Virus record (IMG/VR): IMGVR_UViG_3300049009_000811
Coordinates: 51,720 to 115,719 of that record
DNA length: 64,000 bases
DNA from: a virus
Lineage: Duplodnaviria > Caudoviricetes
Strand: one strand, 5' to 3'
In this document: positions 14,485-35,400 of the stretch, piece after piece
How the letters are laid out: each line of letters starts with the position of its first letter
Position numbering within the stretch: the first letter of the stretch is position 1
Notes under the pieces: model-generated
Database searches by the model: none
Seen by the model: only the letters and a program-made list of their open reading frames with translations
What the model was told of the DNA's origin: nothing
Translations under genes and position numbers: made by a program

Positions 14485-14588
14485 GATATAGCTCCCGATT
14501 TTTCTGGCTGTTGTTGTTTGGCGACTCCCTTTAGAAGAGTGTCCCGACATCACTCTAATATGTTGATGTTTCCCAGGAGTGAAAAAAA

Positions 14589-15419: not shown

Positions 15420-15420
15420 C

Positions 15421-16152: not shown

Positions 16153-16243
16153 ATGTTTATGTAGGCATCCTTGCCTGAAGATCAATCCGTTGAATGTATA
16201 TATCATCGAAGCCTAGCCTAGTCAAACAACTTTCGCAACAATC

Positions 16244-16579
16244 TCACGGATGGCGCATGCTGAGTTTCATCACGACCATGCCGATGACAACCATTATCGA
16301 GCCGACAAAGAATCCCCTTGTCGGGTTTATGCCGTATATTAGGTACGGCACGATGACGTCGACTAGTATGACCGAGAACTCCCAGGCTAGGCTGAACATC
16401 AGCAGCCTTTCGCTCCCGTTGGTGATCCTTGTGCCGAAAGCCCACATAGTGCCGCACACGAGGCTGAAGGATACGCACACCGGCACGTAGTACCACGCGT
16501 TCCTGAAGGAATCGTTGTATGACAGCGACATCGATATTCCGTAAAGGAAAAAAACGATCAATACTATTATGTTCTCCAT
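16244..16579 (-). CDS. four-TM membrane protein (SMR/DMT-like)
   Basis: Four hydrophobic helices in 111 aa. Confidence 0.65.
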   Translation of the reverse strand: MENIIVLIVFFLYGISMSLSYNDSFRNAWYYVPVCVSFSLVCGTMWAFGTRITNGSERLLMFSLAWEFSVILVDVIVPYLIYGINPTRGFFVGSIMVVIGMVVMKLSMRHP

Positions 16580-16627
16580 ATAGTTATATGAAGAAGCGGG
16601 AGAAGTAAATTACCCGGAAAAATGCTC

Positions 16628-16669
16628 AAAAAAAAGACCGGTCCTTTTTTCGGACCGGTATTTTTTTTT
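16628..16669. terminator. intrinsic (bidirectional) terminator
   Basis: Stem ACCGGTCC/GGACCGGT flanked by an A-run and a T-run. Confidence 0.75.
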
Positions 16670-16926
16670 CAATGCCCCTCGGCTATTTTCTGGGCTTTCC
16701 TGTAATCTCCCTTTCCGAGGGCTTTTCTCATCTTCTTTTTACTCAGAATCTCGCACAGGGTGATTATCACGGACGTGGTGACTGGCTTGCTGAAGAAAAC
16801 AAGCCTTTCGTCTTCGTCGTGACCTATGTGGCATATCAATTCTCCGGTGGACTTGTCGACGAACCTCACCACGTTTTCCCCCATGCCCAACAAGTCGGAC
16901 TTGCCGGACTCCTCCTCTTTGAACAT
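16669..16926 (-). CDS. hypothetical protein
   Basis: ORF with SD AAGGA. Confidence 0.65.
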   Translation of the reverse strand: MFKEEESGKSDLLGMGENVVRFVDKSTGELICHIGHDEDERLVFFSKPVTTSVIITLCEILSKKKMRKALGKGDYRKAQKIAEGH

Positions 16927-16937
16927 TCGAGCGTCCT

Positions 16938-17345
16938 TTACTTCTTGATTTTAGGGTCCTTGTTCGCTTCGGGCGTGATGGCTACTGGTTCTGGGATCAT
17001 CCAGCGGGCATGACCTTCCTTCGTGAAGTTGAACTGCTTTATGGCGGTGTGGTATCCGTCGGCGTACGAAGCCGTTCCGGCGACCTTCAGCGCCGAGTCC
17101 CATCCGTCCTGGAAAGAACCGGGGGATTGCGGTCCGCCCATTTTTATGAGCGCGTCCCTGTATCCGTCGTTGTAGGACGGCGATGTCTGCAGGGAGCCTA
17201 TCTCGTTAGCCATCAGCGAGTTCTCGAACTTGAGTATCTGCGAGTACAGGTTCGCGCTTCTGGCGTCGTAGTCCTTGTAGGCTGCGAAAGCCAGGGAAAC
17301 CAAGGTTGCCGCGCACGAAGCGACCAAAATCTTTCTCGAATCCAT
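16938..17345 (-). CDS. membrane-anchored hypothetical protein
   Basis: N-terminal hydrophobic helix; YxDGY repeats; SD AGGAG. Confidence 0.65.
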   Translation of the reverse strand: MDSRKILVASCAATLVSLAFAAYKDYDARSANLYSQILKFENSLMANEIGSLQTSPSYNDGYRDALIKMGGPQSPGSFQDGWDSALKVAGTASYADGYHTAIKQFNFTKEGHARWMIPEPVAITPEANKDPKIKK

Positions 17346-17419
17346 GAAAAACACTCCTTTCATTTTAGTGTTGCCGATAGGCAGTAGGTTACCAGCGACG
17401 GAAACAAAATCAATGGCAA

Positions 17420-18031
17420 TCAGGAGTTTTTTTCCAGTTTGTATTCGACCGCCACGTTTACCGTCATCGTGGGGACTCCGATGTCGGTGCATATGTTGAC
17501 CTTTTTGGCTTGCGCAGCCGTGAGGAAAAGGTCGGCGTTGTTCTTGTCGTGTAGCATCTCGAGGAAGAAGCCGGGTTTCTTCCCGCAGTTCTTCGACATG
17601 ATCTTGAATATGAGCTTGTTGAGCCTGTCCGTCTCCTTCACGTCAGCCTTTATATCCTCCGTCTTGCCAAACGACCTTGACGACACCTCGTGTATCATGA
17701 GGGTCGCGTGCGGGGACATGTACCTCCTGTCGCCCATGGCGAACAGTATGGCTCCGCACGACATTGCTTTGCTCTCGACTATTGTGTGGCACGGGAGCGG
17801 ACATGTCTCTATCCTGCCGACCATCTCCAGCAGGCTGTAGACTTCGCCGCCGTACGAGTCTACGACTATGGGGATGAACGGCTGCCCGGAGTTGGAAGCC
17901 TTGTCCATCTGTTCCGAGAAGTCCTGGCACGACGTCCCGGAGAAGTTCTTGACCCTGATGACGACCGGCTGGTCCATCAGTTCCTCGAGCTTGCACTTGA
18001 TGGCTTTGTCCACTTTTATCGTCTTGTGCAT
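17420..18031 (-). CDS. clpP: ATP-dependent Clp protease proteolytic subunit-like
   Basis: DSYGGEV, KAMSCGA (catalytic Ser), MIHE (His), DLFLTA (Asp). Confidence 0.9.
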   Translation of the reverse strand: MHKTIKVDKAIKCKLEELMDQPVVIRVKNFSGTSCQDFSEQMDKASNSGQPFIPIVVDSYGGEVYSLLEMVGRIETCPLPCHTIVESKAMSCGAILFAMGDRRYMSPHATLMIHEVSSRSFGKTEDIKADVKETDRLNKLIFKIMSKNCGKKPGFFLEMLHDKNNADLFLTAAQAKKVNICTDIGVPTMTVNVAVEYKLEKNS

Positions 18032-18032
18032 T

Positions 18033-18890
18033 TCACCTCGGTTTTTCCAGGTATGACTTCGCCACGTTCGACATCCTCATGAACGCCATTGTCGGCGAGT
18101 ATTCGGACAGAACCTTGAACGGGTTCCCGAAGGAGAAGTATTCCGGCGGCTTGAATCCGAACATGTTCTTGCTGAATATAGGCATGTATCCGTTTCTGTA
18201 GCTTATAAAGCTTTTGGGATGGTTGCTGAAAAGGTCGCAGTCGAGCTCGTATGTCCCCAGCGCGTTGTACTTGCCGACATACTTGTGCAGCTGCACGTTC
18301 ATGGCTACGTTGACGCTTTCCGACCAAGGTTCCTTCCCGGACTTGATCTGGTTGAATATGTACTGCTCGCACAGGTTTATTGTCTCGTCGAAGAATTCGC
18401 TAGGGAAGCCGCCGAAGAACATGGTCCCGTAGGCGCTCGGCCATTTTTCCGAAGTCAATTCCTTTGGGTCGATGCCGAAGTGTTCCTTGAAGCCGGTCTT
18501 CCCGTCTATGAACTCGGGGGTGAAGTAAGGGTCGATCTGGAACCGGCAGAAAACCTGATCTTGGATGTCCTGGGGCTTGCTGAATATGATGGAGTCGAGG
18601 TCGAGCATGACGAACTGGTCGGATAGAGCCTTGTCCTTCATGGCGAAGCTGACCGCGTAAAGCTTGTTGAGCGTCTCGAACCCCCTGACTTCGCCTATGT
18701 TCGTGTGCACGAACTTTCTGGCGTGGTTGTTGATGTTCGACGAGAATTCGGGCAGCAGTTTCGAGTCTTCCCTCGAGGCGATGCATATCAGGAGCTTGTC
18801 CTCCAGCCCGATGGTCTTGAAGCTCTCTATCATAAGCTCAAGCTGCCACTGGTTTTGCGGGGTAAGCTCTGTGCTCACGAAAAAATCCAT
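18033..18890 (-). CDS. GT-A glycosyltransferase-like protein
   Basis: QWQ.ELM..SF, LNK..A, FVMLDLDSII (DxD). Confidence 0.6.
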   Translation of the reverse strand: MDFFVSTELTPQNQWQLELMIESFKTIGLEDKLLICIASREDSKLLPEFSSNINNHARKFVHTNIGEVRGFETLNKLYAVSFAMKDKALSDQFVMLDLDSIIFSKPQDIQDQVFCRFQIDPYFTPEFIDGKTGFKEHFGIDPKELTSEKWPSAYGTMFFGGFPSEFFDETINLCEQYIFNQIKSGKEPWSESVNVAMNVQLHKYVGKYNALGTYELDCDLFSNHPKSFISYRNGYMPIFSKNMFGFKPPEYFSFGNPFKVLSEYSPTMAFMRMSNVAKSYLEKPR

Positions 18891-18959
18891 AAAATCTCCT
18901 TTGTTGTGTTTAAATTAGTGTGGAAAAGACTAAAATGTAATCAGAAAGGCGGTTTGAAC

Positions 18960-19547
18960 ATGAAAGCTTTGACATTAACATTGGCGGTGGCGGTCGCGTC
19001 CATCCTCTACCTTGGGGTTTCTCCCAAGCTCGAGGCTGGCTGAAACGACGACAACGGTTTCGTTGTCGTTCCCCCGCCGGTCGGCGGATACGGCAATCTT
19101 GACGGCTTGGACACGAGAGACAGGCTTCGTCTGGAGGACGACTACAAGTACATGGTCTACCTCGCCAGGCAACTGGTCACGATGGACCAGACCATGTTCG
19201 AGGCGGCGCTGAACAGGAGCGACAGGCGCGTCAAGTCAGCGGCTCTGGCTATAGCTCACAAGTACGAGGAGAAGTACCTCGAAGACCTTATCTCCAACAT
19301 CGACTCGGACGAGCTTCTGGTCAGCCAGGCTGCCAGATACAGCCTAATACAGATAAGCAACCTTTACTTGGGAGGCAAGAACTTCGTCGACTTCGGTCCC
19401 ATGATCACGCACGACAGGGACACCAAGAGTTCCATAGCTTTCCTGTGGAAGGCTTGGTTCGGCAAGGCTGTGAAGGAAGGGAAAAAATGCAAGGGTTCAC
19501 AGACGATCCAGAAGTCGACCGCGAAAACCCCGACGCAGAAGAAGTGA
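18960..19547 (+). pseudogene. exported HEAT-like helical protein interrupted by an in-frame TGA (19041-19043); readthrough or nonsense allele
   Basis: Signal peptide ORF and the downstream 19107..19547 ORF share one frame, separated only by TGA. Confidence 0.6.
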
Positions 19548-19753
19548 CATTGAAGTCGGATGAAATAGGAAGTGACGAGCGTGTGTGCTGCAACTGCAAG
19601 CATTTACTCTGGGGAATAGCTCTCGGGATCGGCTTGCGATGCACAGAACCGAAGAACCACGATAGGTCTTCGGGAAACATGCCACCGATGGTGCCAAGCA
19701 GGAGGCACACCTGTGCCGGATTCGAGTTTCGCCATCCGCCTAGCAAAGATTGA
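19544..19753 (+). CDS. small Cys-rich protein
   Basis: GTGA overlap; CCNCKH...C...HTC. Confidence 0.6.
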   Translation: MTLKSDEIGSDERVCCNCKHLLWGIALGIGLRCTEPKNHDRSSGNMPPMVPSRRHTCAGFEFRHPPSKD

Positions 19754-20083
19754 TCATCGGCTACTGGTCCCGTGCCATGAGTTGATCCTCTGACCTATCC
19801 ACCTCATGACGTTGGTAGCCATCGAGTTGCCGATAGCCTTGTACCTCGGACTGTCTGGGCAGACCTCGGATGGCTTGCCCCTATAGGGTATCTGAGTCCA
19901 GTTGTCCGGGAATCCCTGCAGCCTCTCGCATTCCACTGCCGTAAGGTGTCTCACTTTACCGCCTGCGGCGATGTGCATCCTAGGCAGGGAATCCTTCCCT
20001 CCACTGGCACCGTGGTGCTTGTAGAAGCAAGAGGTTATGGTGTCGGAGATATTCTGGAATACCACCTGCTCGATTTCAATCAT
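19754..20083 (-). CDS. free-standing C5 MTase C-terminal module (1 TRD + IX/X)
   Basis: ISDTITSC TRD; RHLTAVECERLQGFPDNWT; RYKAIGNSMA; ATGA overlap and SD GAAGGA. Confidence 0.85.
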   Translation of the reverse strand: MIEIEQVVFQNISDTITSCFYKHHGASGGKDSLPRMHIAAGGKVRHLTAVECERLQGFPDNWTQIPYRGKPSEVCPDSPRYKAIGNSMATNVMRWIGQRINSWHGTSSR

Positions 20084-20616
20084 AAATCCTTCTTTTCGCA
20101 AAAAGTTGGATTGCGTAGTTCCTGATCCTTCCTCAAGATCCTCTGACCTATCCACCGCATGACGTTGACAGCCATCGAGTTTCCCAGAGCCTTGTACCTC
20201 GGACCGTCGGGGCATTTGTCTTCCGGCTTGTTCCTGTACGGCACAAGAGTCCAGTTGTCCGGGAATCCCTGCAACCTCTCGCATTCGGTCGTGGTCATCC
20301 TCCTGATGTACATTTCGGTCACGGTCGATTCCAGTTTCACTGCGACCACGGACTGGTCGGCGTTGTGACCAGGGCTGTTCGTCTGACCGCCGCCACGGCT
20401 CGATCTTCCCATTAGCGTAGCCGAGACCTCTGGAGTGTAGACGAATTCCTGTTTCACCACCGCCACTCCAGGGATCACCGCGGTCCTGAGCGTGAATGCC
20501 GGTTCTCCCTCTTTTCCCCATCCGGCGGTCTGCTTCCTGGTCGGAGAAAGTGAGCAAAGGTCCATCGGGTCTTTCAGCGGAACGCAGGAGACGCTGTCTT
20601 TCTTCTTGTCAATCAT
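20080..20616 (-). CDS. free-standing C5 MTase C-terminal module (2 TRDs + IX/X)
   Basis: PAFTLRT and VSATLMG TRDs; RRMTTTECERLQGFP; RYKALGNSMA; ATGA overlap with the upstream MTase. Confidence 0.85.
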   Translation of the reverse strand: MIDKKKDSVSCVPLKDPMDLCSLSPTRKQTAGWGKEGEPAFTLRTAVIPGVAVVKQEFVYTPEVSATLMGRSSRGGGQTNSPGHNADQSVVAVKLESTVTEMYIRRMTTTECERLQGFPDNWTLVPYRNKPEDKCPDGPRYKALGNSMAVNVMRWIGQRILRKDQELRNPTFCEKKDL

Positions 20617-22571
20617 ATTTGACCGCCATCCTTCATCGCCACCCTCTGACCTATCCACCGCATGACGTTGGTAGCCATCGAGTTGCCTAAAGACTTGTAC
20701 CTCGGACCGTCGGGGCATTTGTCCGCGTCCTTCTTCCTGTACGGTATCTTGGTCCACAAGTCCGGGAAGCCCTGCAGCCTCTCGCACTCTATCGGGGTCA
20801 ACCTCCGCACCACCATGTGCTGGAACACCATCCCGACATGGTCGCCGTCCGACCTGCTGGCGCGTATCGTCTGCGAGGTGTCGCTTACCGTCTGGCTGTA
20901 GCCGTCGAAAGCGAGAACGTCTTGCTCCTGCTCGAGCAACACCATTCCCATCTTGTCGCAGTCCGACCCGGTACGGATCGTCTGGGAGGTCGTGGACAGA
21001 GTCTGATTGTATCCGTCGAACGCCATGGCTTCTTGCTTCTGCTCGAGAATGTAGTTGGTCTGCTTAGCCCCGGACTCCGCAGCCAGAGCCCCGGCTATCT
21101 GCCCGTCGCCTGATATGAACCTCACCTCGTCACGGGTGTTCTGCTGGAACGCGGATTTGATGACATGGCTTGGTCTGCTGGGTCGGTTCTCTCCCTCGGC
21201 TCGAAGCGTTCCGGAGACCTCGTCCTTCACCCAGTAACCGTGACCAGATTCCCGCATGCACTCCGACTCTACCACGTAAGCCTGCGCGCACGGAGCCCCG
21301 CTCAGTTCGGGAGTGGAAACCTGGATCGCTTCGGCGCTTGTCGTGGCTATGATGTGTCCGTTCATGATCGACTGGTGGGTCAGCTTGCCCCCGCCGCACT
21401 GCGTGTCCAGGCACCCGGCTGTCTCCGGGATCTGGTGCTTGACGAAAAGGCTACCGTTGTCGGCGCTGGCGTTTCCGTTCCATTTCGTGCCGTACGCTGC
21501 GGTGAGGCAGTCAGCCGTCTCCCTGAAAGGTACTGGCTTGCCTTGGCTGTTGGAATCCGCTATCGCCGGCGGGTGAGCCCCCGAAGCGAGAGGGTGGCAA
21601 GGGTCGCCCGGCTTAGGGTTGCTGTAGTTGGACGCGCTGGTTATCTGCGTGGTGTCGAACGGCAGGACGCCGTTCTCATCCTTGCTGGTCGACGAGTAGT
21701 CCTGGACCGACCTCTTCGGCGGCGAGTCTAATCTTTTTTTTTGAGGCACAGCCTGTATGTAGCCGGCGTCCACGCCCTGGTTGCAAGCGAAATTGCCGGC
21801 GTCATGTCCGTTCGGACCGGTGTTGCATGCCAGAGTACCGACCGTCTCGGACCTGCTCGGCGGGGAATCTATTCTGGGTCTTTCGTCTCTGGATCTTTCG
21901 TCGAGACTTCCCGAAGAGCCGACTCCAGAGTCGGAGGGAGCTTCTTGCCCCTGCGCTCCGCCCTCGACAGTATCCCCCTGCACGCTCGCCCACTCAAAAA
22001 GAATCTCTGCGGGATCTGCCCCGTCTCTAGGACAGCTGACAACGAACACACGCTTGCGCCGTTGTGCCAGGTTGAAATATTGGGCATCGAGGCATCGCCA
22101 CGCGATTGCTCTTTTGGGTCCATACACACAACCAGAGTCCTTCCATTTTCCCCCTGGCGGTCGAATTTCACAATCTTCGCCGGCAAGCGCTCCCAGAAAG
22201 CATCCGAATGCGTTGTCCTTTGAGCTGAGTACCCCTGGCACGTTTTCCCAGATGATGTACTTTGGGTTGAACTTGTCTGCGATCTGCACGAAGGTGATTG
22301 AGAGGCTTCCTCGTGCGTCCTCGAGTCCGCGCCGCAGTCCTGCGACTGAGAAGGCTTGGCATGGAGTTCCTCCGACGAGGATGTCGACGTCTCCGATATT
22401 CCAGTTTCTGTATTCATTCATGTCTCCTAGGTTTGGAACGTTTGGGAATCTGTGGGCTAGAACCGCGGCGGGGAAGGCGTCTATCTCGGAGAAAGCAACT
22501 GGCTCCCAACCGAAATCGTGCCAGGCTACGCTGGCTGCCTCTATGCCCGAACAAACTGACAAATACTTCAT
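20613..22571 (-). CDS. dcm: DNA (cytosine-5) methyltransferase with long multi-TRD region
   Basis: Motif I SVCSGIEA, IV GGTPCQAFS, VI ENVPG, VIII QRRKRVFVV, IX RRLTPIECERLQGFP, X RYKSLGNS. Confidence 0.95.
   Translation of the reverse strand: MKYLSVCSGIEAASVAWHDFGWEPVAFSEIDAFPAAVLAHRFPNVPNLGDMNEYRNWNIGDVDILVGGTPCQAFSVAGLRRGLEDARGSLSITFVQIADKFNPKYIIWENVPGVLSSKDNAFGCFLGALAGEDCEIRPPGGKWKDSGCVYGPKRAIAWRCLDAQYFNLAQRRKRVFVVSCPRDGADPAEILFEWASVQGDTVEGGAQGQEAPSDSGVGSSGSLDERSRDERPRIDSPPSRSETVGTLACNTGPNGHDAGNFACNQGVDAGYIQAVPQKKRLDSPPKRSVQDYSSTSKDENGVLPFDTTQITSASNYSNPKPGDPCHPLASGAHPPAIADSNSQGKPVPFRETADCLTAAYGTKWNGNASADNGSLFVKHQIPETAGCLDTQCGGGKLTHQSIMNGHIIATTSAEAIQVSTPELSGAPCAQAYVVESECMRESGHGYWVKDEVSGTLRAEGENRPSRPSHVIKSAFQQNTRDEVRFISGDGQIAGALAAESGAKQTNYILEQKQEAMAFDGYNQTLSTTSQTIRTGSDCDKMGMVLLEQEQDVLAFDGYSQTVSDTSQTIRASRSDGDHVGMVFQHMVVRRLTPIECERLQGFPDLWTKIPYRKKDADKCPDGPRYKSLGNSMATNVMRWIGQRVAMKDGGQI
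21869..22417 (-). CDS. nested alternative-frame MTase beta subunit (M.EcoHK31I-beta-like)
   Basis: SD AGGAGA 5 nt before ATG; C-terminus CSLSAVLETGQIPQRFFLSGRACRGILSRAERRGKKLP conserved with the paralogue. Confidence 0.75.
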   Translation of the reverse strand: MNTETGISETSTSSSEELHAKPSQSQDCGADSRTHEEASQSPSCRSQTSSTQSTSSGKTCQGYSAQRTTHSDAFWERLPAKIVKFDRQGENGRTLVVCMDPKEQSRGDASMPNISTWHNGASVCSLSAVLETGQIPQRFFLSGRACRGILSRAERRGKKLPPTLESALREVSTKDPETKDPE

Positions 22572-22584
22572 CGCGAATCTCCTT

Positions 22585-23922
22585 TTATTTTTCCGACTCG
22601 ACCCGCTCGCCTATCCAGCGCATCACGTTTACGCACATGGAGTTGCCGATAGCCTTGTACCTCGGACCGTCTGGGCATGCCTCGGCTGGCTTGCCCCTGT
22701 ATGGTATCTGAGTCCAGTTGTCCGGGAATCCCTGCAGCCTCTCGCACTCTATGGGAGTGAGCTTCCTCACGATCATGGAGTGGTGGAGAGACATCTGGTT
22801 GTCGCCGGGTTCCTTCCTCAGCGTGCCGCATATGTCCTCCCAGTAGTAGCCACCCATCCTGGACATTGCTCCCGGCTCGAAGGTCGCCGGATGCATCACG
22901 AGGCTTCCGCCCTGGTTCTTGCTCGGGTCCGGCACCGAAGTGTCAAGGGTCTTTATCGTTTCCACTTCCCTGCAGCCGCTGTGCGGGTTGCTTGATTTCA
23001 TCGAGTTGCTCGATTTTGAGTCGAACGAGTACACGACCGCGGGCTGCGCGACCCCGTGCACGCAGGCTGAGGTTATGGTGTTGGATGGGTCGCCCTCGGA
23101 GCCTACGCCGAGACCCTGCCTGTTCATCGCGTCCATCTTTTTCGGGTCTCGGCAGGCGTTGCGGAGGTCGAGGGGTATGGCTTGGACAGCCACGTGCCTC
23201 TGCTTGCTGCCCTGGAGGGCATCAAGCGTGTTCGTGACATCGGTCTCGACATAGCAGCCGCCGGTGTCGCCGAAATTCTGGGGCTTGTACAGGGTCACTC
23301 CGTCTTGTTCGCAACCGCCTCCAGAGCGTTCTTGAGCTTCTCTGGAAGCTGCTTTTTTCTTTCCTCTGCTCTTCGCAGTATCCCTAGACACGCTTTCTGA
23401 CTTAAAAAGTACTTTTGCTGCACGTTCCTGGTCTCCAAGACACCCAACAACGAACACCCTTCGTCTCCGTTGCGGAACTCCGAACCCCGAAGCGTCCAGG
23501 ACCCTATATGCCCACCCGTACCCCAGTTCCCCCAGCCCCCCGAGGAAGGTTCCAAAATCCCTTCCTCCGTGGCTTGAAAGCACCCCGGGGACATTTTCCC
23601 AGACAATCCATCTAGGTTTTCTACTTCTAGCGATCTCAAGAAATCTGAGCATGAGACCGCCCCTTGGGTCGCTGAGCCCTTTTCGCAGTCCCGCGACTGA
23701 GAAGCTCTGGCATGGGGTTCCTCCGACGAGCAGGTCGATTGGATCGATGTCCCATCGTTCATGTTCATTCATGTCTCCTAGGTTTGGTACGTTCGGGAAT
23801 CTTGTCTTGAGAATCTCGCAAGGGAATTTCTCTATCTCTGAGAAGGCTACTGCTTCCCAGCCCATGTGGTGCCAAGCCGAGGTCGCGGCTTCTATGCCGG
23901 AACAGACCGATAGGTATTTCAT
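22585..23922 (-). CDS. dcm: DNA (cytosine-5) methyltransferase, multi-TRD
   Basis: All C5-MTase motifs (GGTPCQSFS, ENVPG, QRRRRVF, ECERLQGFP, KAIGNS). Confidence 0.95.
   Translation of the reverse strand: MKYLSVCSGIEAATSAWHHMGWEAVAFSEIEKFPCEILKTRFPNVPNLGDMNEHERWDIDPIDLLVGGTPCQSFSVAGLRKGLSDPRGGLMLRFLEIARSRKPRWIVWENVPGVLSSHGGRDFGTFLGGLGELGYGWAYRVLDASGFGVPQRRRRVFVVGCLGDQERAAKVLFKSESVSRDTAKSRGKKKAASREAQERSGGGCEQDGVTLYKPQNFGDTGGCYVETDVTNTLDALQGSKQRHVAVQAIPLDLRNACRDPKKMDAMNRQGLGVGSEGDPSNTITSACVHGVAQPAVVYSFDSKSSNSMKSSNPHSGCREVETIKTLDTSVPDPSKNQGGSLVMHPATFEPGAMSRMGGYYWEDICGTLRKEPGDNQMSLHHSMIVRKLTPIECERLQGFPDNWTQIPYRGKPAEACPDGPRYKAIGNSMCVNVMRWIGERVESEK
23295..23768 (-). CDS. nested alternative-frame MTase beta subunit (M.EcoHK31I-beta-like)
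   Basis: Same AGGAGACATGAATG start context; CSLLGVLETRNVQQKYFLSQKACLGILRRAEERKKQLP. Confidence 0.75.
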   Translation of the reverse strand: MNMNDGTSIQSTCSSEEPHARASQSRDCEKGSATQGAVSCSDFLRSLEVENLDGLSGKMSPGCFQATEEGILEPSSGGWGNWGTGGHIGSWTLRGSEFRNGDEGCSLLGVLETRNVQQKYFLSQKACLGILRRAEERKKQLPEKLKNALEAVANKTE

Positions 23923-24009
23923 GGGGTCGCCTTTCCGCTTCTGGCATAGAAACTATCATCTTGCCGATTAAGGAGTATAAGCGATAAACAATTAAAAATA
24001 AATAGATCT

Positions 24010-25476
24010 TCAGGAACCAATGTTGTCCAGGAACCTTTTTGTGGACAAAAGCCTTCTGGTCCGCTCGAAATCATCGCCTTTGGGGCTGTGACCGAGCATG
24101 TTGACATACGCGGGGTTGACCTTCTTGCCGAAGACGGTGTCGACGTAGGGGCTCAAATCGGAGTCGTCATGGCTGAGGAACGAGCCCATCTGCGGACCGT
24201 CGAACCTGCCCATCTTCATCCAGTCCTTGATCTTGCCCTTCGTGAGTCCCGTCTTGGCGCTCTTGAGGTCATAGAACATGGACGGGTCGAAGTTGCTTTT
24301 GGACCACTTGTAGAGGCTCACGAGGTGGGCTATGTCGCCAGCCTCCTGCTTCGACCATCCGTTGCCGACAAGCATGTCCTTGAGCTCCTCGGAATCCTTG
24401 TCCTTGGTCAGCCAAGCCGTGGTCAGCCACCTGTCGCCCTTCATGTTGGTCGGCAGATCTTCCAGAGAGTAGTCCGGCATGATGTTGCGGAGCAGACCGA
24501 GGCTGTCCATGAGCCTAAGGTATTTCCTGGAATCTATGTCCGGGTCTTCGATGCTCCCGAAGAACTCCTTCTTGGCGTAGTCCTTGGAAAGGTCTCCAAT
24601 CCTCTCGTTCCCCTTTATGGCGCTGGCGTATTTCTTGGCGACGTCGTCGGGATTGCCGTATTTCGAAAGCATCCTAGCGTACCGCATGGCGGTGCCCGGG
24701 TCTTCCTCTATCCTCGACTTGAAGTCGTCGTTGACGCTTACTATCTGGCTGTTCTTGAGGTGGTGCGCGCCGCCGTACGGGTCTATTAGGTCGGAGTTGT
24801 CGCCGTCGCTGTTGGTCAGCGGTATGTACATGGAGTTTATGGTGAAGTCCCTGTTGCTCGCGTCGTCCTCGAGTGATCCGGTAGCCTCGAAGGAATCGAG
24901 GTCGACCAGCTTGCTCTTGGATGACTTGGACATCGTGGAAAGCTCGAACTTCTCCCCGTTTATGACGATCGTGAATTCCGACTCCTTTCCGCCCTTGTCC
25001 CACCTGGAGGCGTAGAAGTACTTGTTCCTGTTGCTTTCCTTGAGGAGTTTCGCGTATTTCTCGGACGAAGCCTTGCTTTCGTTCTTCGGCTTTATCTCGA
25101 CGAACGAGTTTTCCGGGTGGCTCAGGATCATCCTTATCTCGCTGGCGGTGGCGTCGGTGACGAGGTTGTAGTTCTTCTGCGTCTTGTTCTTGAGGTGGTC
25201 CCTGACCGAGCCTCCGGACAGGTAAAGCGACTTCCTCTTGAGGGTCGGCTCAACCTCGCCCTTGCTTTTCTCTATGGTCGTGTACCCTATGCCCGTTTTG
25301 TCGCTGTTGTCGAAAGACTTCATGAGGATGCGGAGGTTAGCCCTGTTGCCCTTGGAGACGTTGAACGGCATGTAGTCGCTGTCCTTGCTCAGCCTGACCT
25401 TGGACATGACCGTGTTGTTCGGCTTTGTCTCGTTTTGTTCCCTGAATGCCATGAAACGTGAAAATTTGTTTTTCAT
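24010..25476 (-). CDS. CCA-adding/poly(A) polymerase-family nucleotidyltransferase homologue, catalytically degenerate
   Basis: LYLSGGSVRD, RDFTINSMY, IDPYGG..HL present; DxD reads NYN. Confidence 0.85.
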   Translation of the reverse strand: MKNKFSRFMAFREQNETKPNNTVMSKVRLSKDSDYMPFNVSKGNRANLRILMKSFDNSDKTGIGYTTIEKSKGEVEPTLKRKSLYLSGGSVRDHLKNKTQKNYNLVTDATASEIRMILSHPENSFVEIKPKNESKASSEKYAKLLKESNRNKYFYASRWDKGGKESEFTIVINGEKFELSTMSKSSKSKLVDLDSFEATGSLEDDASNRDFTINSMYIPLTNSDGDNSDLIDPYGGAHHLKNSQIVSVNDDFKSRIEEDPGTAMRYARMLSKYGNPDDVAKKYASAIKGNERIGDLSKDYAKKEFFGSIEDPDIDSRKYLRLMDSLGLLRNIMPDYSLEDLPTNMKGDRWLTTAWLTKDKDSEELKDMLVGNGWSKQEAGDIAHLVSLYKWSKSNFDPSMFYDLKSAKTGLTKGKIKDWMKMGRFDGPQMGSFLSHDDSDLSPYVDTVFGKKVNPAYVNMLGHSPKGDDFERTRRLLSTKRFLDNIGS

Positions 25477-25543
25477 TTGATTCCCCAAAAGTAAAAATAC
25501 AAGATTATTTATCTTCCCTGACTCGATTTTTGAAACAAGAATG

Positions 25544-25942
25544 TCAGTTTTGTCCTAGCTTGTACGCCGCGTAGGTAGATATGAAAGTAAGAACTATCTT
25601 GAAAATCCAGTCGACGGTCTTTGACCACTTGTCGGAATGGTTCGACAGGGACAGGTCGAGGTTCGAAGTCCTGATGTCGAGTTCGTGCATTTTCGCCCGT
25701 ATAGCCTCTATGTCGTCGGAGTGGATCGTCGTCTCCATCGACGCGACCCTCTGTAGTATCGACCTTATGTCTTCGGACACCAGATCCAGGTTGTTCTTGT
25801 ACTCGTCGTCCTTCTCGTAGAGGATCTTTATCCTTTCGTCTATCCTCGACACCATGTTGATGACGGACTCTATGGAGTCGCGGATGTTCTTGTCGACTAT
25901 GTCGACCTCTATCTGCCTGGAGTTGCTCTTTTGTTGTGTCAT
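25544..25942 (-). CDS. coiled-coil protein with C-terminal TM helix (XhlA/holin-like)
   Basis: Heptad pattern, RIDER, terminal hydrophobic helix. Confidence 0.6.
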   Translation of the reverse strand: MTQQKSNSRQIEVDIVDKNIRDSIESVINMVSRIDERIKILYEKDDEYKNNLDLVSEDIRSILQRVASMETTIHSDDIEAIRAKMHELDIRTSNLDLSLSNHSDKWSKTVDWIFKIVLTFISTYAAYKLGQN

Positions 25943-25980
25943 AGGTTTCAGATTTCTCGTGTTCCGAGCTTATATATTAC

Positions 25981-26505
25981 ATGAACAGCGGAGACCTTAT
26001 TGAAGAAATGAAAAAAACGGAAGAATTTTCCACGATCGAGATAATCGACAGTGTCGGAGACGAACTACGCGACATACAGAGCGTCCTCCCTAACATGAAC
26101 TCCAAGGTCGTCGACCAGTCGATCGAGCCCCAGGAGAACAGCATAATATCGGACGAGGAGATAACCGGCATATACGCCGACATACTCGGTCTGATAAAGG
26201 AAGACAGGCAGCAGGTAAGCGGCTTCATAGACACCATGGCGGAGATGGTCATAAACGACGGCGACGCGACCACCTCAAGCAAGGAGGCTCTCGTGAACCT
26301 CATAAAGATAAAGGTGGACATGACAGACAAGATGTCCAAGGTAGCCGACATGATGACAAGGGTCAAACTCAAGGAAAAGGACACTTTCCCGAAATACTTG
26401 GCGACAAACCAGAACAACACGATCAACATCAACGAGTCCGGATCAAGAAGGAACCTCATAGAGGCTATAAACAAGGCGAAGAACAACAAGGAAAAAAATG
26501 TATAA
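25981..26505 (+). CDS. hypothetical protein, possibly T4 gp16-like small terminase
   Basis: Helical core L.NLIK...D.TDKM and C-terminal NQNNTINI..GS..L resemble gp16 architecture. Confidence 0.4.
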   Translation: MNSGDLIEEMKKTEEFSTIEIIDSVGDELRDIQSVLPNMNSKVVDQSIEPQENSIISDEEITGIYADILGLIKEDRQQVSGFIDTMAEMVINDGDATTSSKEALVNLIKIKVDMTDKMSKVADMMTRVKLKEKDTFPKYLATNQNNTININESGSRRNLIEAINKAKNNKEKNV

Positions 26506-27808
26506 CATAGCGATACAGGAATTGCTCAACGAAGCGGACCCAAGCATGAACCCTTCAGGCAACCCGCCAGCCGTGGGCGCCGGAGTGCCTCCGGGTCAGG
26601 AAGCCCCTGTAGCCCCCGAGGGCGATCCCAACGTGGCGAACACGCCTCCGAACATGAAGTCCGGAGAGGACGCCGGAAGCCCGCCGCCGGACGACGAGGT
26701 CCCGGACAGGTCGCAGGACCCAGAAGCCCCGGACATGCCGGACGAGAAGAAAAGCGAGAGCTTCGACGAGTGGCAGGACGGATTCATGAGGGAAACCACC
26801 AAGGGCGACGTCAACAAGCTGATAGACATGATCCAGCAGATAAGGGACGAGGACCTCGACTCCTACCCGAGGAAGTTCATCGAGGACAACCTGCAGATAT
26901 GCTTCCTGAGGCAGCACTCGAACATAGACAAGGCTAGCAAGGAGATCCGCAAGCTGGTAAAGGGCGAACTCGACCAGAACAGCCCGGCAGGATCACTGTC
27001 GAAGCACATAAGCTCGGTGCTCCAGACCATGCCTGAACTCAACAACGTGTTCATCAAGGTCAAGGGTCTGCTCGGGGCAAAGGGCGACATGCACCGCAAG
27101 TTCGTTGCTGCCCTCACCGGTTCGGTGCAGGTCGGGAGCGGAGCCAACAGCGAGGACATCATCTACAACGAGAGGGAATACTCCATCAGGATATCGACCA
27201 GGTTCAACGACAAGTGGGGCAGGGTCGAGATAGGCAAGTGGGCTCTAAAGGAAGAGGATCCGGGCAAGTACCTGACCGAACCGGAACAGAAGAGGCTGGA
27301 GGAGGGAAGCCCGGAAGAGAGGGACGTGCTGCGCAGGAGGATCGTGATGGAGAGCATCGGCGACTCCTTCAGGAAAAGGGCGTTCATAATCCACGTGGTA
27401 TCCACCGACGGCACAATCAACATGGTCGGTTGGGACATGGCGACCTCGCTGAGGAACGCCTACACGGAAGGCAAGCTCATGGTGAAGACTCTCCTCTCGC
27501 AGAACTCCGAGGCGATGATAGACAACGACGGCAAGATCATACCCTCAGTCGACCTCAAGGTCGTGTACATCAAGGAGACAGGCGAACTTGACGAGGACGG
27601 AAAGCCGGTCAAGGAGGAGAACGACTTCCTGGAGAGGATAGACGGCATACTGTACCTCACGGCGACACAGCAGATAATAAAGGAGGCGGCAGCCTCCTTC
27701 ACAGGTCTCTCGTGGAAGGAGACGCCGTACAACGGGAACCCGAGTGACCTCAAGGTTCTGATGCGGTGCGTCCCGAACGCCACGGAATTGCTCATGAGAC
27801 AATGTTAA
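26498..27808 (+). CDS. putative virion/prohead protein with Pro-rich N-terminus
   Basis: LLNEA leader followed by a Pro/acidic linker; long ORF. Confidence 0.6.
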   Translation: MYNIAIQELLNEADPSMNPSGNPPAVGAGVPPGQEAPVAPEGDPNVANTPPNMKSGEDAGSPPPDDEVPDRSQDPEAPDMPDEKKSESFDEWQDGFMRETTKGDVNKLIDMIQQIRDEDLDSYPRKFIEDNLQICFLRQHSNIDKASKEIRKLVKGELDQNSPAGSLSKHISSVLQTMPELNNVFIKVKGLLGAKGDMHRKFVAALTGSVQVGSGANSEDIIYNEREYSIRISTRFNDKWGRVEIGKWALKEEDPGKYLTEPEQKRLEEGSPEERDVLRRRIVMESIGDSFRKRAFIIHVVSTDGTINMVGWDMATSLRNAYTEGKLMVKTLLSQNSEAMIDNDGKIIPSVDLKVVYIKETGELDEDGKPVKEENDFLERIDGILYLTATQQIIKEAAASFTGLSWKETPYNGNPSDLKVLMRCVPNATELLMRQC

Positions 27809-27819
27809 GGAGACCAAAA

Positions 27820-28317
27820 ATGCAGTTCAACGAATTCATAAACCACAGGCAGAGGGAGGACAGGGAACACCTAGCCCTCCTCGCCAGAGTGCTGAAAAGC
27901 GGAAACGACAAGTTCGAGATCAAGACGTTCTTCGACGACGACGACCCGTACATATACGTGAAGTCGCCTTACGAGACATTCAGTTTCGAGGGCATAAGGG
28001 TGTATCCCCGCGGCGACACCTTCGCGTACAAGGTCCAGAACGAGGAGGACACGCATCCCTACGGAAAGGCTTACTCGCTCGACCTAGAGAGGATGTTCTC
28101 GGACTTCATGGGAGATAACCTGGAGGCGGAGGACGCAGCCAAGCAGGTGATGCTCAGCGCCAAAAGGGAGATAAGGACTTTCTTCAAGAAGACCGAGGAA
28201 GCCGAGGAGAAGATATCCGATTCGCCAGCGAAGTCGCAGTATCTGCTGAAGACCGGCGGGGCTGGCGACCTCAGCGCACCCCAGGACTACAGCACGATGG
28301 TCACGGGCAAAGTCTAA
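27820..28317 (+). CDS. putative head-associated protein
   Basis: SD AAGGAG; leader MQFNEFI. Confidence 0.7.
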   Translation: MQFNEFINHRQREDREHLALLARVLKSGNDKFEIKTFFDDDDPYIYVKSPYETFSFEGIRVYPRGDTFAYKVQNEEDTHPYGKAYSLDLERMFSDFMGDNLEAEDAAKQVMLSAKREIRTFFKKTEEAEEKISDSPAKSQYLLKTGGAGDLSAPQDYSTMVTGKV

Positions 28318-28349
28318 CCGCCGTGAATCGCGGCGGTCGAGGCATTCGC

Positions 28350-28724
28350 TCAATGATCCGAATCATATTCGTCCGAGTAATCGTCTTCGTCGTCCGAGCA
28401 ATCACTCTCGTACGCCCTGTCCGCGACACAACTTTCGGCAAAGACCGTACATCTGTTGCCGTTCATTTTTTCTCGCCAGTTGATTTTATGGATGTTCCTG
28501 TATGTCGCCATTTCCATGAATTCTTTGAAATCATCGTAAGTGACCATCTCATCCGAGATGCCATCGTTCACGAGTTTTTCCATTTCCTCATCATTCTCGG
28601 CTTCGAATATCACTTGCCCCTTGATGACCGGGTATGTCTCGCTCTCTCTGGAACCGGCGCCGGATTCGCCAGGGTCTTCCCAGGTCTCCCAAACAATGTC
28701 AAGAGTGTTGGATACAATTTTCAT
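28350..28724 (-). CDS. acidic hypothetical protein
   Basis: SD AAGGAG; acidic tail. Confidence 0.65.
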   Translation of the reverse strand: MKIVSNTLDIVWETWEDPGESGAGSRESETYPVIKGQVIFEAENDEEMEKLVNDGISDEMVTYDDFKEFMEMATYRNIHKINWREKMNGNRCTVFAESCVADRAYESDCSDDEDDYSDEYDSDH

Positions 28725-28778
28725 GAAAAATCTCCTTAAGATAACGGCGCTTCGAAGCAGCCGAGGTAACGCCATTGA

Positions 28779-29162
28779 TTAACCGCCGAAAATCTCGCCG
28801 TTCTTCTCGATCTCGTCGAACAGGTTTGGTCTCTGCCTCAATATGGACTTCACCATCGAATCCCACCAGAGGTACGCCATGCCTATCGGCTTCGGCATCT
28901 TCTCGAAAACGTTCCCTTCATCGCTCTGCTCCAGATTGTTGACGCTCTCGAGGAACGCGACCATCTGATCCTCCTTGTTCTTCCTGCTTTCCTCGTCCAG
29001 TTTCTTTATGAAGAACATGTCGTTGGTGACCATGTACCAGAAGACGTCCTGCATGACGATGATGTCGTTGTAGTCGACCTCGATGCCGCTGGATATGTCG
29101 ACGCATACGGGCAAGACCATCTTCACGAACCTCTGCGCCACGGTCTCTGATCTAGATGCCAT
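28779..29162 (-). CDS. hypothetical protein
   Basis: ORF in a co-oriented run. Confidence 0.7.
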   Translation of the reverse strand: MASRSETVAQRFVKMVLPVCVDISSGIEVDYNDIIVMQDVFWYMVTNDMFFIKKLDEESRKNKEDQMVAFLESVNNLEQSDEGNVFEKMPKPIGMAYLWWDSMVKSILRQRPNLFDEIEKNGEIFGG

Positions 29163-29166
29163 GATT

Positions 29167-29493
29167 CTATCCTTTCACGATTAATATTGCGGAAACGAAA
29201 CCAGCCATGAATATGAAGAAATCGACCATCGAAAACAACGGCTTGGCGACGACGGCGTTTCGCGGCTCTGCCTTCTGGGCTTTCTCCGGGACCGGCATGA
29301 CGGAATCCTCCACCGGGGGTTTCGAGGCGACGGGAGGGATCGGGGGCATCGAAGTAACCGGGAGTATGAGGGTAGTCTCCCTGTTGCACCTTGGGCAGAA
29401 GAAGCTCTCGAAGACCTTGGAACTCCTGCTCCTAATGCCCATCTTCCTGCATCCGTCGCAAAGATACAACGTCTTTTTCTCGAGAGTTTTCAT
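29167..29493 (-). CDS. zinc-finger membrane-anchored protein
   Basis: CDGC..CPRC, Pro linker, C-terminal TM. Confidence 0.65.
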   Translation of the reverse strand: MKTLEKKTLYLCDGCRKMGIRSRSSKVFESFFCPRCNRETTLILPVTSMPPIPPVASKPPVEDSVMPVPEKAQKAEPRNAVVAKPLFSMVDFFIFMAGFVSAILIVKG

Positions 29494-29990
29494 TAATTCA
29501 ACCCAGCCTTCGACAACTCGAACAGGTTCTGCATCTTGCCGTACACCAAACCGCCCAACGAATGGTTCTCGTCCCAGGTTTCCCAGTCTCCGAGCGTCAC
29601 CTTGTCGCCGTCACGGCTTATATCGGCGACATAGGACTTGCTGGTCTTGAAGCTCGAGTACTCGATGATCAACGATTCCTTCCTGTCGGGATAGTCTTCC
29701 AAGCTACCCATTTCGCCGATGTGGTCGGTCACTTCCTTGATCGAGCTAGGCAACTGCTTCTCCACGAGCCAAGCCTCCGCGATAAACACGTACTCCCTCA
29801 GTTCCCCGCTCGCTATCATTTTCTTCAACGATTCGATGGATTCCATTTTCTCGTCCTGGTTTTTCCAGAAGCACGGCTGCAATCTCGTCACGCCATTGAC
29901 GTTGAGGATGTACAGCGTTACATGAGAGCCATCGCTCTCGAATGCGGACCTGGATAATCTCTTTAAATCATCAATCTGGTCTATCAACAT
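29493..29990 (-). CDS. conserved-type phage hypothetical protein
   Basis: YVFIAEAW...PDRKE motif; TAATG coupling. Confidence 0.7.
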   Translation of the reverse strand: MLIDQIDDLKRLSRSAFESDGSHVTLYILNVNGVTRLQPCFWKNQDEKMESIESLKKMIASGELREYVFIAEAWLVEKQLPSSIKEVTDHIGEMGSLEDYPDRKESLIIEYSSFKTSKSYVADISRDGDKVTLGDWETWDENHSLGGLVYGKMQNLFELSKAGLN

Positions 29991-30022
29991 ATTGCGATCC
30001 TTTCTCGATTTGTTTTATATCC

Positions 30023-32400: not shown

Positions 32401-35400
32401 ATGGCTCAAATTTCGGACAACCTGGGAAGAGTAGTGGCAGCTCAGAACACCGCCAACATGACCCTGGAGCAGATAAGGGACATGCTCGGCACCAAGCTGA
32501 AAAGCCCGGTGGGCGAAGCCAAGTCGTTCGGCAAGGAAAAGTCGGCGGACCCGGCGCTCCAGAAAATCTCCGACATGTTCACGCAGTACGTCAAGGACTT
32601 CAAGGCGGACGTAGACGACCGCAAGACCTACATCGACGACATGAAGAAGGTGCTGGAGGAAATAAGGGACAAGAAGGAACAGACCGGCAAGGAGAAGAAG
32701 GATTCGACAGCCGAAGCCGCGGACCTGTCGTTCATGGAGCAGTTCGCGAAGATGGCGATGAGCGCCACGTCCATATACACGAAGGACGAGGATGCGAGAA
32801 AATCCCTGACAGAGATAAGCACCACATTGAAGACCATGCAGCAGAGTTCCTCCACCAAGGTCGAGAGCGCTGTCTCGTCGATGGTCGAAATCAAGGGCAT
32901 GGACAACCTGGAGAAAATGGCTCTTAGGGGCATGAAGCCCGGATCCATCTACACCAACGACGCCGGGGTGAGGAAGGTGCTGCGCAAGATATCGTCCACA
33001 CTGAACAAAGTCGCGGAAAAGATGGGCGTGGTTTCGGACGTGGAAAAGTCCATAAAGCCGCCAAAAGACCCGAAGCCTCCGAAACCGCCGAAACCTCCAG
33101 GGGGCAAGAATCCCTCAGAGCATCTGGATGACATAGTCGGTAAACCCCCGGTTGAACCCAAGGAAAAAAAGACGGAGAAAAAAAGGGATCAAAAATTCGA
33201 TCCATATGCCGCGAAAAGGTGGGCTGACAAAACCGAAGAGATAATATCGCAAGGGCTCATGGGAATAAAGCTTACCGATTACATCAGCTTCGAGTCGCTT
33301 CTTGTCCAGGAGAGGAAATTGGTGCAGGAGACAAGGAAGATAGCCTACGAGATAAATGGCGCCACCAAGGGAAGCAAAGCCCTCACCGAATCGTTCGACG
33401 CCATGGGCAAGACGTCAGCCATGACGGGAAAGACTCGCGATGAATTCCAGAAATTATATGTGGACAACCTCAAGAAGGGCATCAGGGAAGCCAAGACGGC
33501 GCAGAAGATAACCGTCGCCCAGCTCAACACGGAAGAACAGCTCGGGATGGAAGCGCAAGCTTTGGGCGATACGTTCTCGGACATGAACCTCAAGCTGAAG
33601 ATGAATTCCTCGCAGGTGGCCGAAGTCGGCAGGGGGATGAGGGAGGTCGCAAGAAACACAGGCATGACCGGCAAGGAACTTGCTGGGGTGATCACGAGTT
33701 CTGCGACATTCGTGAACAACATGCGTAAAGCCGGGACGCTGACGACCGCTTCCTACAAGAACATCGTGGAACTCCAGGCGAACCTAAAGAAGGTCGGCGA
33801 GGAAGGCGGAGGGATGATGGACGCTCTTTCCAGCACGAACAAGCTGCTGGCTGCCGACTCTAAGATGTTCAACTTGCTCGCCATATCCGCCTCGAGGGCT
33901 GGTCTGACGACTGAACTGCTCAACGGAAGCATCACGAAGAGCAAGGACAGCCTCAAGGGAATGGCTGGAGGATTCAAGAGCATAGCCAACCAGTTCGGCA
34001 TAGCCGGAGAGACCGCCGAGGAGATGAGGAAAAACCTCGAGGAACTCGACGACGCCACGAAGAGGAACATAAACATATCTCTGGAGTCGGCTTTAGGTGT
34101 GGAGGCTGGGCAGCTCATATCGCAGTTCGAGGCTATATCCAACTCGAGCAAGACCCTCGCCGACAAGCTTTCCGACCTCAACGCCAAGAAGAAGACGAAC
34201 ATAACCCTTGACGAGAAAGCCGGCATAGCCGAGGAGGAGAGGAAACTCAGGCTAGGCAAGTCGCTGGAAGTGCTCACCGCCCTCGACAAGGCTGCTTCGT
34301 CTGCCACCAACATGGGGGACGCCCTCCAGAGCTTCAGCAAGAAGAGGAGCGAATTCGAGGGCGACCTCAACGCCCTTGGCGTCGCATGGACATCCGAGAC
34401 GGACGTCGCCAGGAAAGCTATAGAGGGATCGCTCCAGGGAGTGAACAAGCAGCTCAAGGATGCCGGAAAGAAAGAGCTAAAGATAGACGCGTCGCAGATA
34501 GAGAAGGCTCTCAAGGACCCTGCTGCCATCAGGGAACTGACGGCTCAGATAACGAAGGCTGAGCAGGAGGCTTCGACCGCTTCCAAGGCTCAGCTCGACC
34601 CGGCATCCGCGTCGGCTCAGAGCCTCAAGGAAATAAACGACAGCATAAGGAATCTGGTCGGCGGCGGCTTGAGCGCGGTATTCAGTTCCGCCTTCGGCGG
34701 AATGTTGGCTACCTTGGGTCTAGTCGTATCCTTCGGGGCGATGGCTGTAAGCTGGCTTTCTGGGATCTACAGCTACTTGAGGTCAGGTGATCAGCTAAAT
34801 AATTTCATACAAGCCTATGAAATGTCAGGACAGAGAAAATTAGAAGAAACAACATCCAAGTCAACCCAGAATCTCAACAAAGAAGCGACGACAGAGGGTT
34901 CAATCTACACGCATGACAGCCACTCGGAGAAGATACTGAACGAGATCCTCGCGGCGCTTAGAGCCGGCAAGTCGCAGGCTGGAGCCGGAGCCGGGACAGG
35001 TGGCGGCGGCGGCTTCAACGTGACGAAGTTCGACCCTCTCAAGTCCGAGCACCACGACCTGGGGATGTCGGCGGCGAAGAAAAAGGACGGACAACTTAGG
35101 GCGGCTGGCAAGAGCGGTATGTCCGATGAAGCAATGAAGAAGATGGCTGCGGGAATAGCGGCGAAGAAGGAGTCGGCGATTCAGGGCGGCGCGGTCGGGT
35201 TCAGGGACCAGAAGAAGCTGGCTGCGAAGACGGGCGGCGGCGAAAAGTTCAACAAGGCTCTGGAGAGGGCGGAGGAGAACCACACCAAGAGGAGGATTAA
35301 GTTCCAGCGGCAGGAGATGGCTCACGACATGAGGCGCATCAAAGGCGAGAAGAAGTGCGACCCATGCCCCGACACCAAGGACGTCGACGTGGAGTCTCCG

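Follow-up and report, generated by a model that had tools for sequence, protein, structure and literature searches.

Class II CCA-adding enzymes are regarded as uniformly active and essential polymerases. In the Escherichia coli enzyme the two aspartates of the DxD motif are essential, an AxA variant being inactive, and selection on the human enzyme found the D and the R of the EDxxR motif to be irreplaceable (PMC11784652). A second described system concerns delivery: the capsid targeting sequence (CTS) of phage T4, MKTYQEFIAE, in which targeting depends on residues 4 and 7 and cleavage by gp21 on residues 8 and 10. Here we describe a nucleotidyltransferase (NTase)-like gene of an uncultured tailed phage that recalls both systems. 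It lies at 24010 to 25476 (minus strand) of a 64,000-nucleotide stretch, hereafter "the window", which spans positions 51,720 to 115,719 of IMG/VR record IMGVR_UViG_3300049009_000811. Its product (P0001; 488 amino acids [aa]), judged from sequence comparisons, is a conserved pseudo-enzyme of the class II family, headed by a leader that resembles the T4 CTS. Because the source record, a viral contig of 115.7 kb, is estimated to be 24% complete, the phage genome should measure about 0.5 Mb. No second PF01743 gene was found in the 115-kb record, no tRNA genes were found within the window, and a megablast comparison of window positions 20000 to 30000 with the phage collection returned no match.

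Homology and fold are both directly supported. The open reading frame (ORF), which the earlier note had described as intact and 488 aa long, is borne out by the ORF call and translation, and its product matches the PolyA_pol head domain (PF01743; E value of 3.4e-19, 69.9 bits against a cutoff of 23) as well as phrog_2244, the PHROGs family of phage tRNA nucleotidyltransferases (E value of 1.9e-24). An AlphaFold2 model built on 53 relatives (predicted local distance difference test score [pLDDT] of 88.7; predicted template modeling score of 0.82) finds its best structural match with Foldseek and VIA-align in 4x4w_A (Z score of 25.2, root mean square deviation [rmsd] of 5.6, 360 aligned residues, model residues 26 to 487), and also matches the tRNA-bound CCA enzymes 8cbm_E (Z score of 22.3) and 5hc9_B (Z score of 20.1, rmsd of 4.7, 360 aligned residues, model residues 23 to 485). 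These matches to class II CCA enzymes take in almost the entire model, so that all four parts (head, neck, body, and tail) are predicted to be retained. Taken over the class II CCA enzymes and bacterial poly(A) polymerase in structures 4X4W, 8CBM, 1MIV, 6QY6, 5HC9, and 3AQL, this shared head-neck-body-tail fold covers residues ~23 to 487 with Z scores of 20 to 25. The phage protein differs from them at its N terminus, where the leader and a small domain add about 85 residues, and at positions 120 to 155, where ~35 residues are inserted; in the model, the N-terminal part consists of a helix at residues 2 to 12, a low-confidence linker at residues 9 to 23, and then a further ~60 conserved residues ahead of the head domain.

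What sets the protein apart from the described enzymes is the state of its active-site motifs. The first half of motif A, GGSVRD (residues 88 to 93; 25198 to 25215, minus strand), is intact, with G88, G89, R92, and D93 being invariant in the family. However, where the metal-binding DxD is expected, the protein reads N102-Y103-N104 (25165 to 25173, minus strand), both asparagines being encoded by AAC (25173 to 25171 and 25167 to 25165). When aligned with HMMER to solved CCA enzymes and to E. coli poly(A) polymerase, the protein has N102 and N104 in the columns of the two catalytic aspartates and GGSVRD in those of GGxVRD, and the same assignment follows from the alignment to the DxD of 6ibp and 3aqk. 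Motif B, RRD in all canonical relatives, reads N208-R209-D210 (24847 to 24855, minus strand), with no variation in the family at R209 and D210, and the templating motif D, EDxxR, reads E258-D259-P-G-T262 (24691 to 24705, minus strand), with arginine in place of T262 in canonical relatives. The replacements of DxD by NxN, RRD by NRD, and EDxxR by EDPGT had all been read from the sequence in the earlier note, and each was confirmed, the two AAC codons at the positions given there. The third carboxylate, the E of the xEVTTFR motif, is present in the window protein as E178, at a position that varies across the clade. Motif C (DPxGG), GGxVRD, the R-D of RRD, and the E-D of EDxxR remain common to the phage protein and class II CCA enzymes. 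With both aspartates, the motif B arginine, and the templating arginine gone, synthesis of CCA or poly(A) by this protein is very unlikely as far as its sequence tells. The protein belongs to PF01743 by sequence and fold; because it lacks three features that define an active class II enzyme (DxD, RRD, and EDxxR), labeling it a CCA-adding enzyme would be wrong.

These replacements are a property of a whole clade rather than of a single genome. A search of 5.8 billion proteins yielded 245 relatives, and the tallies given here use the 120 listed ones together with the window protein (n = 121). The listed relatives are about 490 aa long, share 44 to 97% identity, and lie on huge-phage contigs of up to 670 kb. 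None of the 121 sequences holds both DxD aspartates: position 102 is N in 111, D in 4, G in 4, and S in 2, and position 104 is D in 102 and N in 19. Arginine is likewise absent from position 208 (N110, G6, S3, T2) and from position 262 (mostly T101, I9, V4, and M3), and position 178, the third carboxylate, is occupied by E in 33 sequences, N in 30, D in 13, S in 9, and other residues in the remainder. In a joint alignment of 149 homologues (MAFFT --auto), the ~75 distant homologues uniformly show D,D, E, RRD, and ED..R at the motif columns, which confirms the assignment of the columns and shows the clade to be the unusual party. Compared with intact relatives, the clade has fixed the switches D102N, D112S, K157S, V167E, R208N, and Q260P, plus R262T, while GGxVRD, R209-D210, E258-D259, and R265 vary little or not at all. 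At the DxD site most members of the clade read NYD, the NYN of the window protein being limited to sub-lineages (19 of 121).

Conservation extends from the leader to the C terminus, and purifying selection is directly visible in the DNA of related viral contigs. By the Nei-Gojobori method, the ratio of nonsynonymous to synonymous substitution rates (dN/dS) between the window gene and its counterpart at locus L008 is 0.082 (11 nonsynonymous and 32 synonymous differences), and other close pairs range from 0.046 to 0.083. Given these ratios and the conservation along the full length, the gene is maintained rather than decaying. The proposal that the enzyme was repurposed and not broken is therefore well backed by the clade-wide loss of residues, the kept fold and length, and the low dN/dS. 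The corresponding expectation for homologues needs qualification: no close homologue has DxD, yet the double asparagine is not the norm of the clade, and distant syntenic orthologues such as the one in LR756511 keep all motifs.

Those intact orthologues point to where the pseudo-enzyme came from. The best match among deposited phage genomes is LR756511.1, a 595-kb uncultured phage whose sole PF01743 gene (580680 to 582206; 508 aa) has KDYDLATDAT, RRD, EDQLR, and EFEIATFR all intact. Together with the intact copies at loci L036, L039, and L040, it shares 37 to 41% identity with the window protein over the full length. Like the window protein, these orthologues carry a leader of the same type (MRTTFLEFMGLKE) and the N-terminal extension, and their genes have the same upstream block of 132-aa XhlA-like, 174-aa, and 436-aa genes; unlike it, they keep DxD, the third carboxylate E, RRD, and EDxxR, and usually have a phosphatase gene of the HAD_SAK_1 type just downstream. 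The gene order upstream of the NTase gene (171-aa, 436-aa, 174-aa, and 132-aa XhlA-like genes) is widely shared, the individual genes of this block recurring at 20 to 39 of the 40 loci. A FastTree phylogeny places the window protein in a 37-tip clade without any canonical member (support of 1.0), the sister group of which includes the intact syntenic orthologues (0.959), the node uniting both sides having a support of 0.943. Orthology to intact enzymes is directly supported, and descent from an intact CCA-type enzyme of huge phages is well supported by these comparisons of sequence and gene order.

Catalytic residues were also lost independently in other leader-bearing NTase lineages of huge phages, which show DH, EH, NN with RRD, HE, and KE types. 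Two members of the intact sister clade (L037:4001-5629 and L038:4001-5596) read DYN through D104N only, keep RRD and EDxxR, and lack an adjacent HAD gene; they may represent a recent independent inactivation. Among genomes with the dead copy, a complete relative of 533 kb (G001) has it as its sole CCA-type gene, with no backup enzyme. This genome (loci L102 to L129) contains about 55 tRNA genes, none of which encodes CCA. Their 3' trailers are unusually uniform, 48 of the 50 genes checked having C and then T after the discriminator base. A second relative (G003; 381 kb) has the dead copy alongside a canonical 411-aa CCA enzyme (L088:1387-2622) that is also headed by a leader (MNFKQWLLTEE). The CCA enzymes of cultured jumbo and T4-like phages (Atu_ph07, Domovoi, Vibrio QD01, and GAP32) are canonical and have no leader.

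The gene neighborhood of the relatives connects the family to RNA repair. Directly downstream of the NTase gene, LR756511, the 533-kb relative, and about half of the related loci encode a phosphatase of ~200 aa with a VIYDFDGT motif and a match to HAD_SAK_1, the HAD domain that occurs in "Swiss Army Knife" RNA-repair proteins; several of these phosphatases bear the same leader as the NTase. Because such a phosphatase follows the NTase in many loci, the ancestral unit looks like a tRNA 3'-end repair pair made of a CCA enzyme and a HAD phosphatase. Neither the window nor its closest relatives (L008, L009, and L027) have an adjacent HAD phosphatase. The neighbor is found at 0 of 6 loci with N104 versus ~19 of 30 with D104, although the six loci represent only two independent lineages. 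At 13559 to 23922 the window instead has two full C5 cytosine methyltransferases plus fragments, occupying the position at which the HAD phosphatase gene and two small genes stand in most relatives; this cassette, shared with L008, looks like a lineage-specific insertion or replacement.

The second trait that the family has in common is the leader. Codons 1 to 13 of the window gene (25438 to 25476, minus strand) encode MKNKFSRFMAFRE, with aromatic residues at positions 5 and 8 and F-R-E at positions 11 to 13, where the family consensus is L-R-E. Conservation among the 121 sequences is nearly complete (F5 in 120, Y or F at position 8 in 120, R or K at position 12 in 121, and E13 in 121, with L, F, or I at position 11), and the 8 to 10 residues that follow are variable. 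An in-frame TTG at 25488 could lengthen the ORF by 4 residues, but the ATG at 25476 is favored as the start because the leader is conserved and a GGGG at 25483 to 25486 (minus strand), 7 to 10 nucleotides before the ATG, provides a probable Shine-Dalgarno sequence; comparable G-rich stretches precede the start at orthologous loci. As in the T4 CTS, the leader has an aromatic-x-x-aromatic-hydrophobic core and ends in an (L/I)xE-type protease site, and the leaders of some relatives come very near to the T4 sequence (MAKTFHEFIAFRE; MKSFKEFI...). The T4 internal proteins IPI to IPIII and Alt, which bear the CTS and are cut by gp21, offer the closest comparison: they too have a short leader with two aromatics three apart, then a hydrophobic residue and a Glu-ended (L/I)xE-type site, which in the phage NTase family is followed by a variable linker. 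They differ in leader length (10 residues versus 13) and in the nature of the cargo, which here is a 54-kDa NTase-fold protein.

The leader also recurs. It heads about 8 other ORFs of the 115-kb record, among them those at 6964 to 7482 (minus), 9996 to 10652 (minus), 11066 to 11731 (plus), 11762 to 13030 (plus), and 27784 to 28317 (plus) of the window, the last of which starts with MQFNEFINHRQRE, and, outside the window, those at 17655 to 18266 (plus) and 21019 to 21798 (minus) in record coordinates. The other leader-bearing genes in the window have no Pfam or PHROG match; MIAFNEFLRE, MNFYEYLQLR, MRFKEWLVLGE, MTFIEYLEH, and MQFNEFINH are examples of leaders found on these otherwise unrelated genes. 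Such a set may represent candidate capsid-loaded proteins. In the 533-kb relative, where the leader is put at about 20 to 30 genes in all, it is present on 19 proxy genes and follows 2.2% of N-terminal methionines versus 0.38% of internal ones; a NUDIX hydrolase, a C39-like peptidase, and S-adenosylmethionine (SAM)-lyase-like proteins are among the products so tagged. A gp21-type prohead protease (PF03420, Peptidase_S77) is encoded by this genome (E value of 4e-29), by G005, and by LR756511 (E values of 1e-27 to 1e-29 across the three); the same search did not find one in G003 or G004. Conservation and recurrence of the leader are direct observations, and the likeness to the head-targeting family that had been noticed in the window alone proved real. 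By analogy with T4, the NTase-like protein is possibly packaged into the virion. For packaging and injection, which had been suggested from the same reading of the window, the support is circumstantial (likeness to the CTS, an LxE-type site, a set of leader genes, and a gp21-type protease in relatives), and we infer both from it.

Taking these lines together, we lean, with little confidence to spare, toward a noncatalytic binder of tRNA 3' ends that descends from a tRNA-repair enzyme, a reading that relies in part on the predicted fold. A class II CCA-adding repair enzyme of huge phages would have lost its metal-binding aspartate pair, the first arginine of RRD, and the templating arginine, while the tRNA-holding scaffold stayed. 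In our reading, the remaining pocket (GGxVRD, R209-D210, E258-D259, and R265) could still take up either a nucleotide or the last residue at a tRNA 3' end, so that the protein would bind tRNA or tRNA-like 3' ends without extending them. Bound in this way, it might act as a targeting subunit for partner repair enzymes such as the neighboring HAD phosphatase; alternatively, it might shield the acceptor end or serve there as a decoy, and protection of tRNA 3' ends from host toxins, proposed in the earlier note, would be a use of the retained fold. To judge from the distribution of the neighbor, the binder probably works with the adjacent phosphatase in many relatives and alone, as a cap or decoy, in the sub-clade of the window; RNA binding and the partner relationship are what we infer here. 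As for delivery, the 13-residue propeptide would direct loading into the prohead, a gp21-type protease would trim the protein after E13, and the mature protein would be ejected into the host with the DNA. One may go further and imagine huge T4-like phages injecting a head-loaded tRNA 3'-end repair kit (a CCA enzyme plus a HAD phosphatase, each bearing the leader), in which, in one large clade, the dead CCA enzyme clamps tRNA ends, capping or handing over the acceptor ends, and thereby blunts host defenses that attack them; we regard this scenario as rather unlikely.

Several observations weigh against a noncatalytic binder with these roles. Within the sub-clade of the window the HAD gene has been replaced by others, so an adaptor role that works through the neighboring gene cannot apply there, and the 115-kb record, 24% complete, contained no PF10307 match and no DxDxT-type ORF. 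A gp21-type protease is also absent from that 24%-complete record, the leader could serve a purpose other than capsid targeting, and all relatives of the pseudo-enzyme are uncultured. Finally, the former metal site shows a pattern of its own. Glu 167 (window codon 24978 to 24976) is specific to the clade, where it is found in 110 of 121 sequences, canonical relatives having Val; all 11 sequences that lack it, from three lineages, have D or E at position 178 (window codon 24945 to 24943). It therefore seems that the vicinity of the former metal site still needs an acid, and the covariation, together with the retention of D104 in most relatives, hints that the old metal site still matters.

The same pattern speaks for the main alternative, in which the protein retains enzymatic activity, through rewired chemistry or on a new substrate. 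Residual or relocated acids would hold a single metal, supporting some other nucleotidyl or phosphoryl transfer, or hydrolysis, on RNA ends. The exchange between E167 and an acid at position 178 and the presence of D104 in 102 of 121 sequences would fit such an activity, as would the near invariance of GGxVRD, R209-D210, E258-D259, and R265 and the strong purifying selection over the whole head domain. However, the window protein has neither DxD aspartate, the E. coli CCA enzyme with AxA at that site is inactive, and the arginine for the triphosphate and ribose as well as the templating arginine are gone in every member; moreover, the residues seen at positions 102, 104, and 178 range over N, D, G, S, H, Y, R, and further ones, as expected of relaxed constraint on a metal site. 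We consider a rewired enzyme possible, if on the unlikely side.

If catalysis is lost and the overall shape is kept, the surface itself might be the functional part, the protein acting as a decoy or inhibitor at the protein level. It would then occupy a host factor, for instance a defense sensor or a toxin that recognizes CCA enzymes, and RNA binding would be irrelevant. The repeated, independent catalytic losses in neighboring leader-bearing NTase lineages have the look of an arms race, and the leader is common to SAM-lyase-like, NUDIX, and peptidase genes that resemble counterdefense cargo. Set against this, the conserved residues line the nucleotide and 3'-end pocket and form no obvious new surface, the common RNA-repair HAD neighbor points to RNA, and no candidate target is known, which together make such a decoy improbable. 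We are more doubtful still that the protein is structural internal-head or scaffold cargo, packed with the DNA irrespective of its enzymatic ancestry. Its CTS-like leader, its mildly basic character (isoelectric point of 8.65 for the mature protein, with a family median of 8.46), and the presence of structural genes such as a baseplate wedge in the window would suit this role, but a filler would not need pocket motifs and a body and tail conserved as highly as the rest, and the canonical orthologues that bear this leader have a full set of catalytic residues, indicating that the cargo was an enzyme. Lastly, a decaying pseudogene, or asparagine codons arising from sequencing or assembly errors, can be set aside with near certainty: a single transition would convert Asp to each Asn codon, but the same states recur across relatives in independent assemblies of many samples (e.g., L008, 98% identical, with NYN), the ORFs are full length, and dN/dS is 0.05 to 0.08.

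Returning to the gene of the proposed tRNA-end binder, its upstream region contains a promoter-like element, GATAAATA (25506 to 25513, minus strand), found by sequence search 30 to 37 nucleotides before the start codon. At most of the ~30 orthologous loci, a TAAATA core is conserved ~35 nucleotides upstream although the spacers are otherwise unalike, making a shared promoter element plausible. TAAATA occurs 6 times in the whole window and 67 times in the 533-kb relative, where it lies within 80 nucleotides upstream of 5 of 19 leader genes versus 12 of 570 other genes; it may thus be a shared promoter of a leader-gene regulon in that genome. In the same genome (L102 to L129), CTAnATA or TAAATA is also seen just 5 to 15 nucleotides before the start codon of many leader genes. 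The late-like promoter proposed in the earlier note is borne out in part, by a conserved local element but not by a motif enriched in the window: as a window-wide late promoter, KATAAATA was rejected (2 sites versus 1.2 expected), and CTANATA is mildly enriched (16 versus 10.1 expected).

Among the remaining genes around the locus, the 436-aa protein (26498 to 27808, plus strand) is better conserved than the NTase, with 49 to 76% identity across loci (leaving aside the nearly identical L008), and is always found in the same block. Its N terminus is disordered and rich in Pro and Glu, and its predicted structure has a pLDDT of 76; Foldseek returned no match, and a wide VIA search gave weak rows resembling PD-(D/E)xK restriction endonucleases, with Z scores of 5 to 7, below the usual noise level. 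Neither Pfam nor PHROGs matched the neighboring 174-aa, 436-aa, 171-aa, and 285-aa genes. A ClpP-like protease gene (17420 to 18031, minus strand; PF00574, E value of 3e-18) lies a few genes downstream of the NTase gene, as it does in 11 loci including LR756511. On the other side, a single ORF of 3917 aa (32401 to 44154, plus strand) is located just upstream of baseplate-like genes.

NTase-fold proteins that keep a Pol-beta-type fold for binding after loss of the carboxylates are familiar from eukaryotes, in MiD51 and in the DZF domain of NF45/NF90. These pseudo-enzymes belong to other NTase families, with other organisms and ligands, and are homologous to the phage protein at the superfamily level only. 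The engineered AxA variant of the E. coli CCA enzyme is nearer in family and, like the phage protein, has both metal-binding aspartates replaced; it is, however, a laboratory mutant with its other motifs intact, whereas the phage protein is natural, under selection, and altered at four or five positions of the pocket. Our literature search turned up no description of a catalytically dead lineage of class II CCA enzymes that is both natural and conserved, nor of a capsid-targeted CCA enzyme.

For the annotation of huge phages, the consequence is immediate: these genes are labeled "tRNA nucleotidyltransferase," and counts of translation functions in huge phages hence include proteins unable to do that job. 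The intact and dead orthologues at one syntenic locus form a clean natural system in which to ask why a polymerase fold is kept after catalysis has been lost. If the dead protein is indeed a capsid-delivered binder of tRNA ends, it would represent a new kind of injected phage effector, directed at the tRNA pool of the host or of the phage, and the leader would identify, across uncultured huge phages, an entire set of injected proteins.

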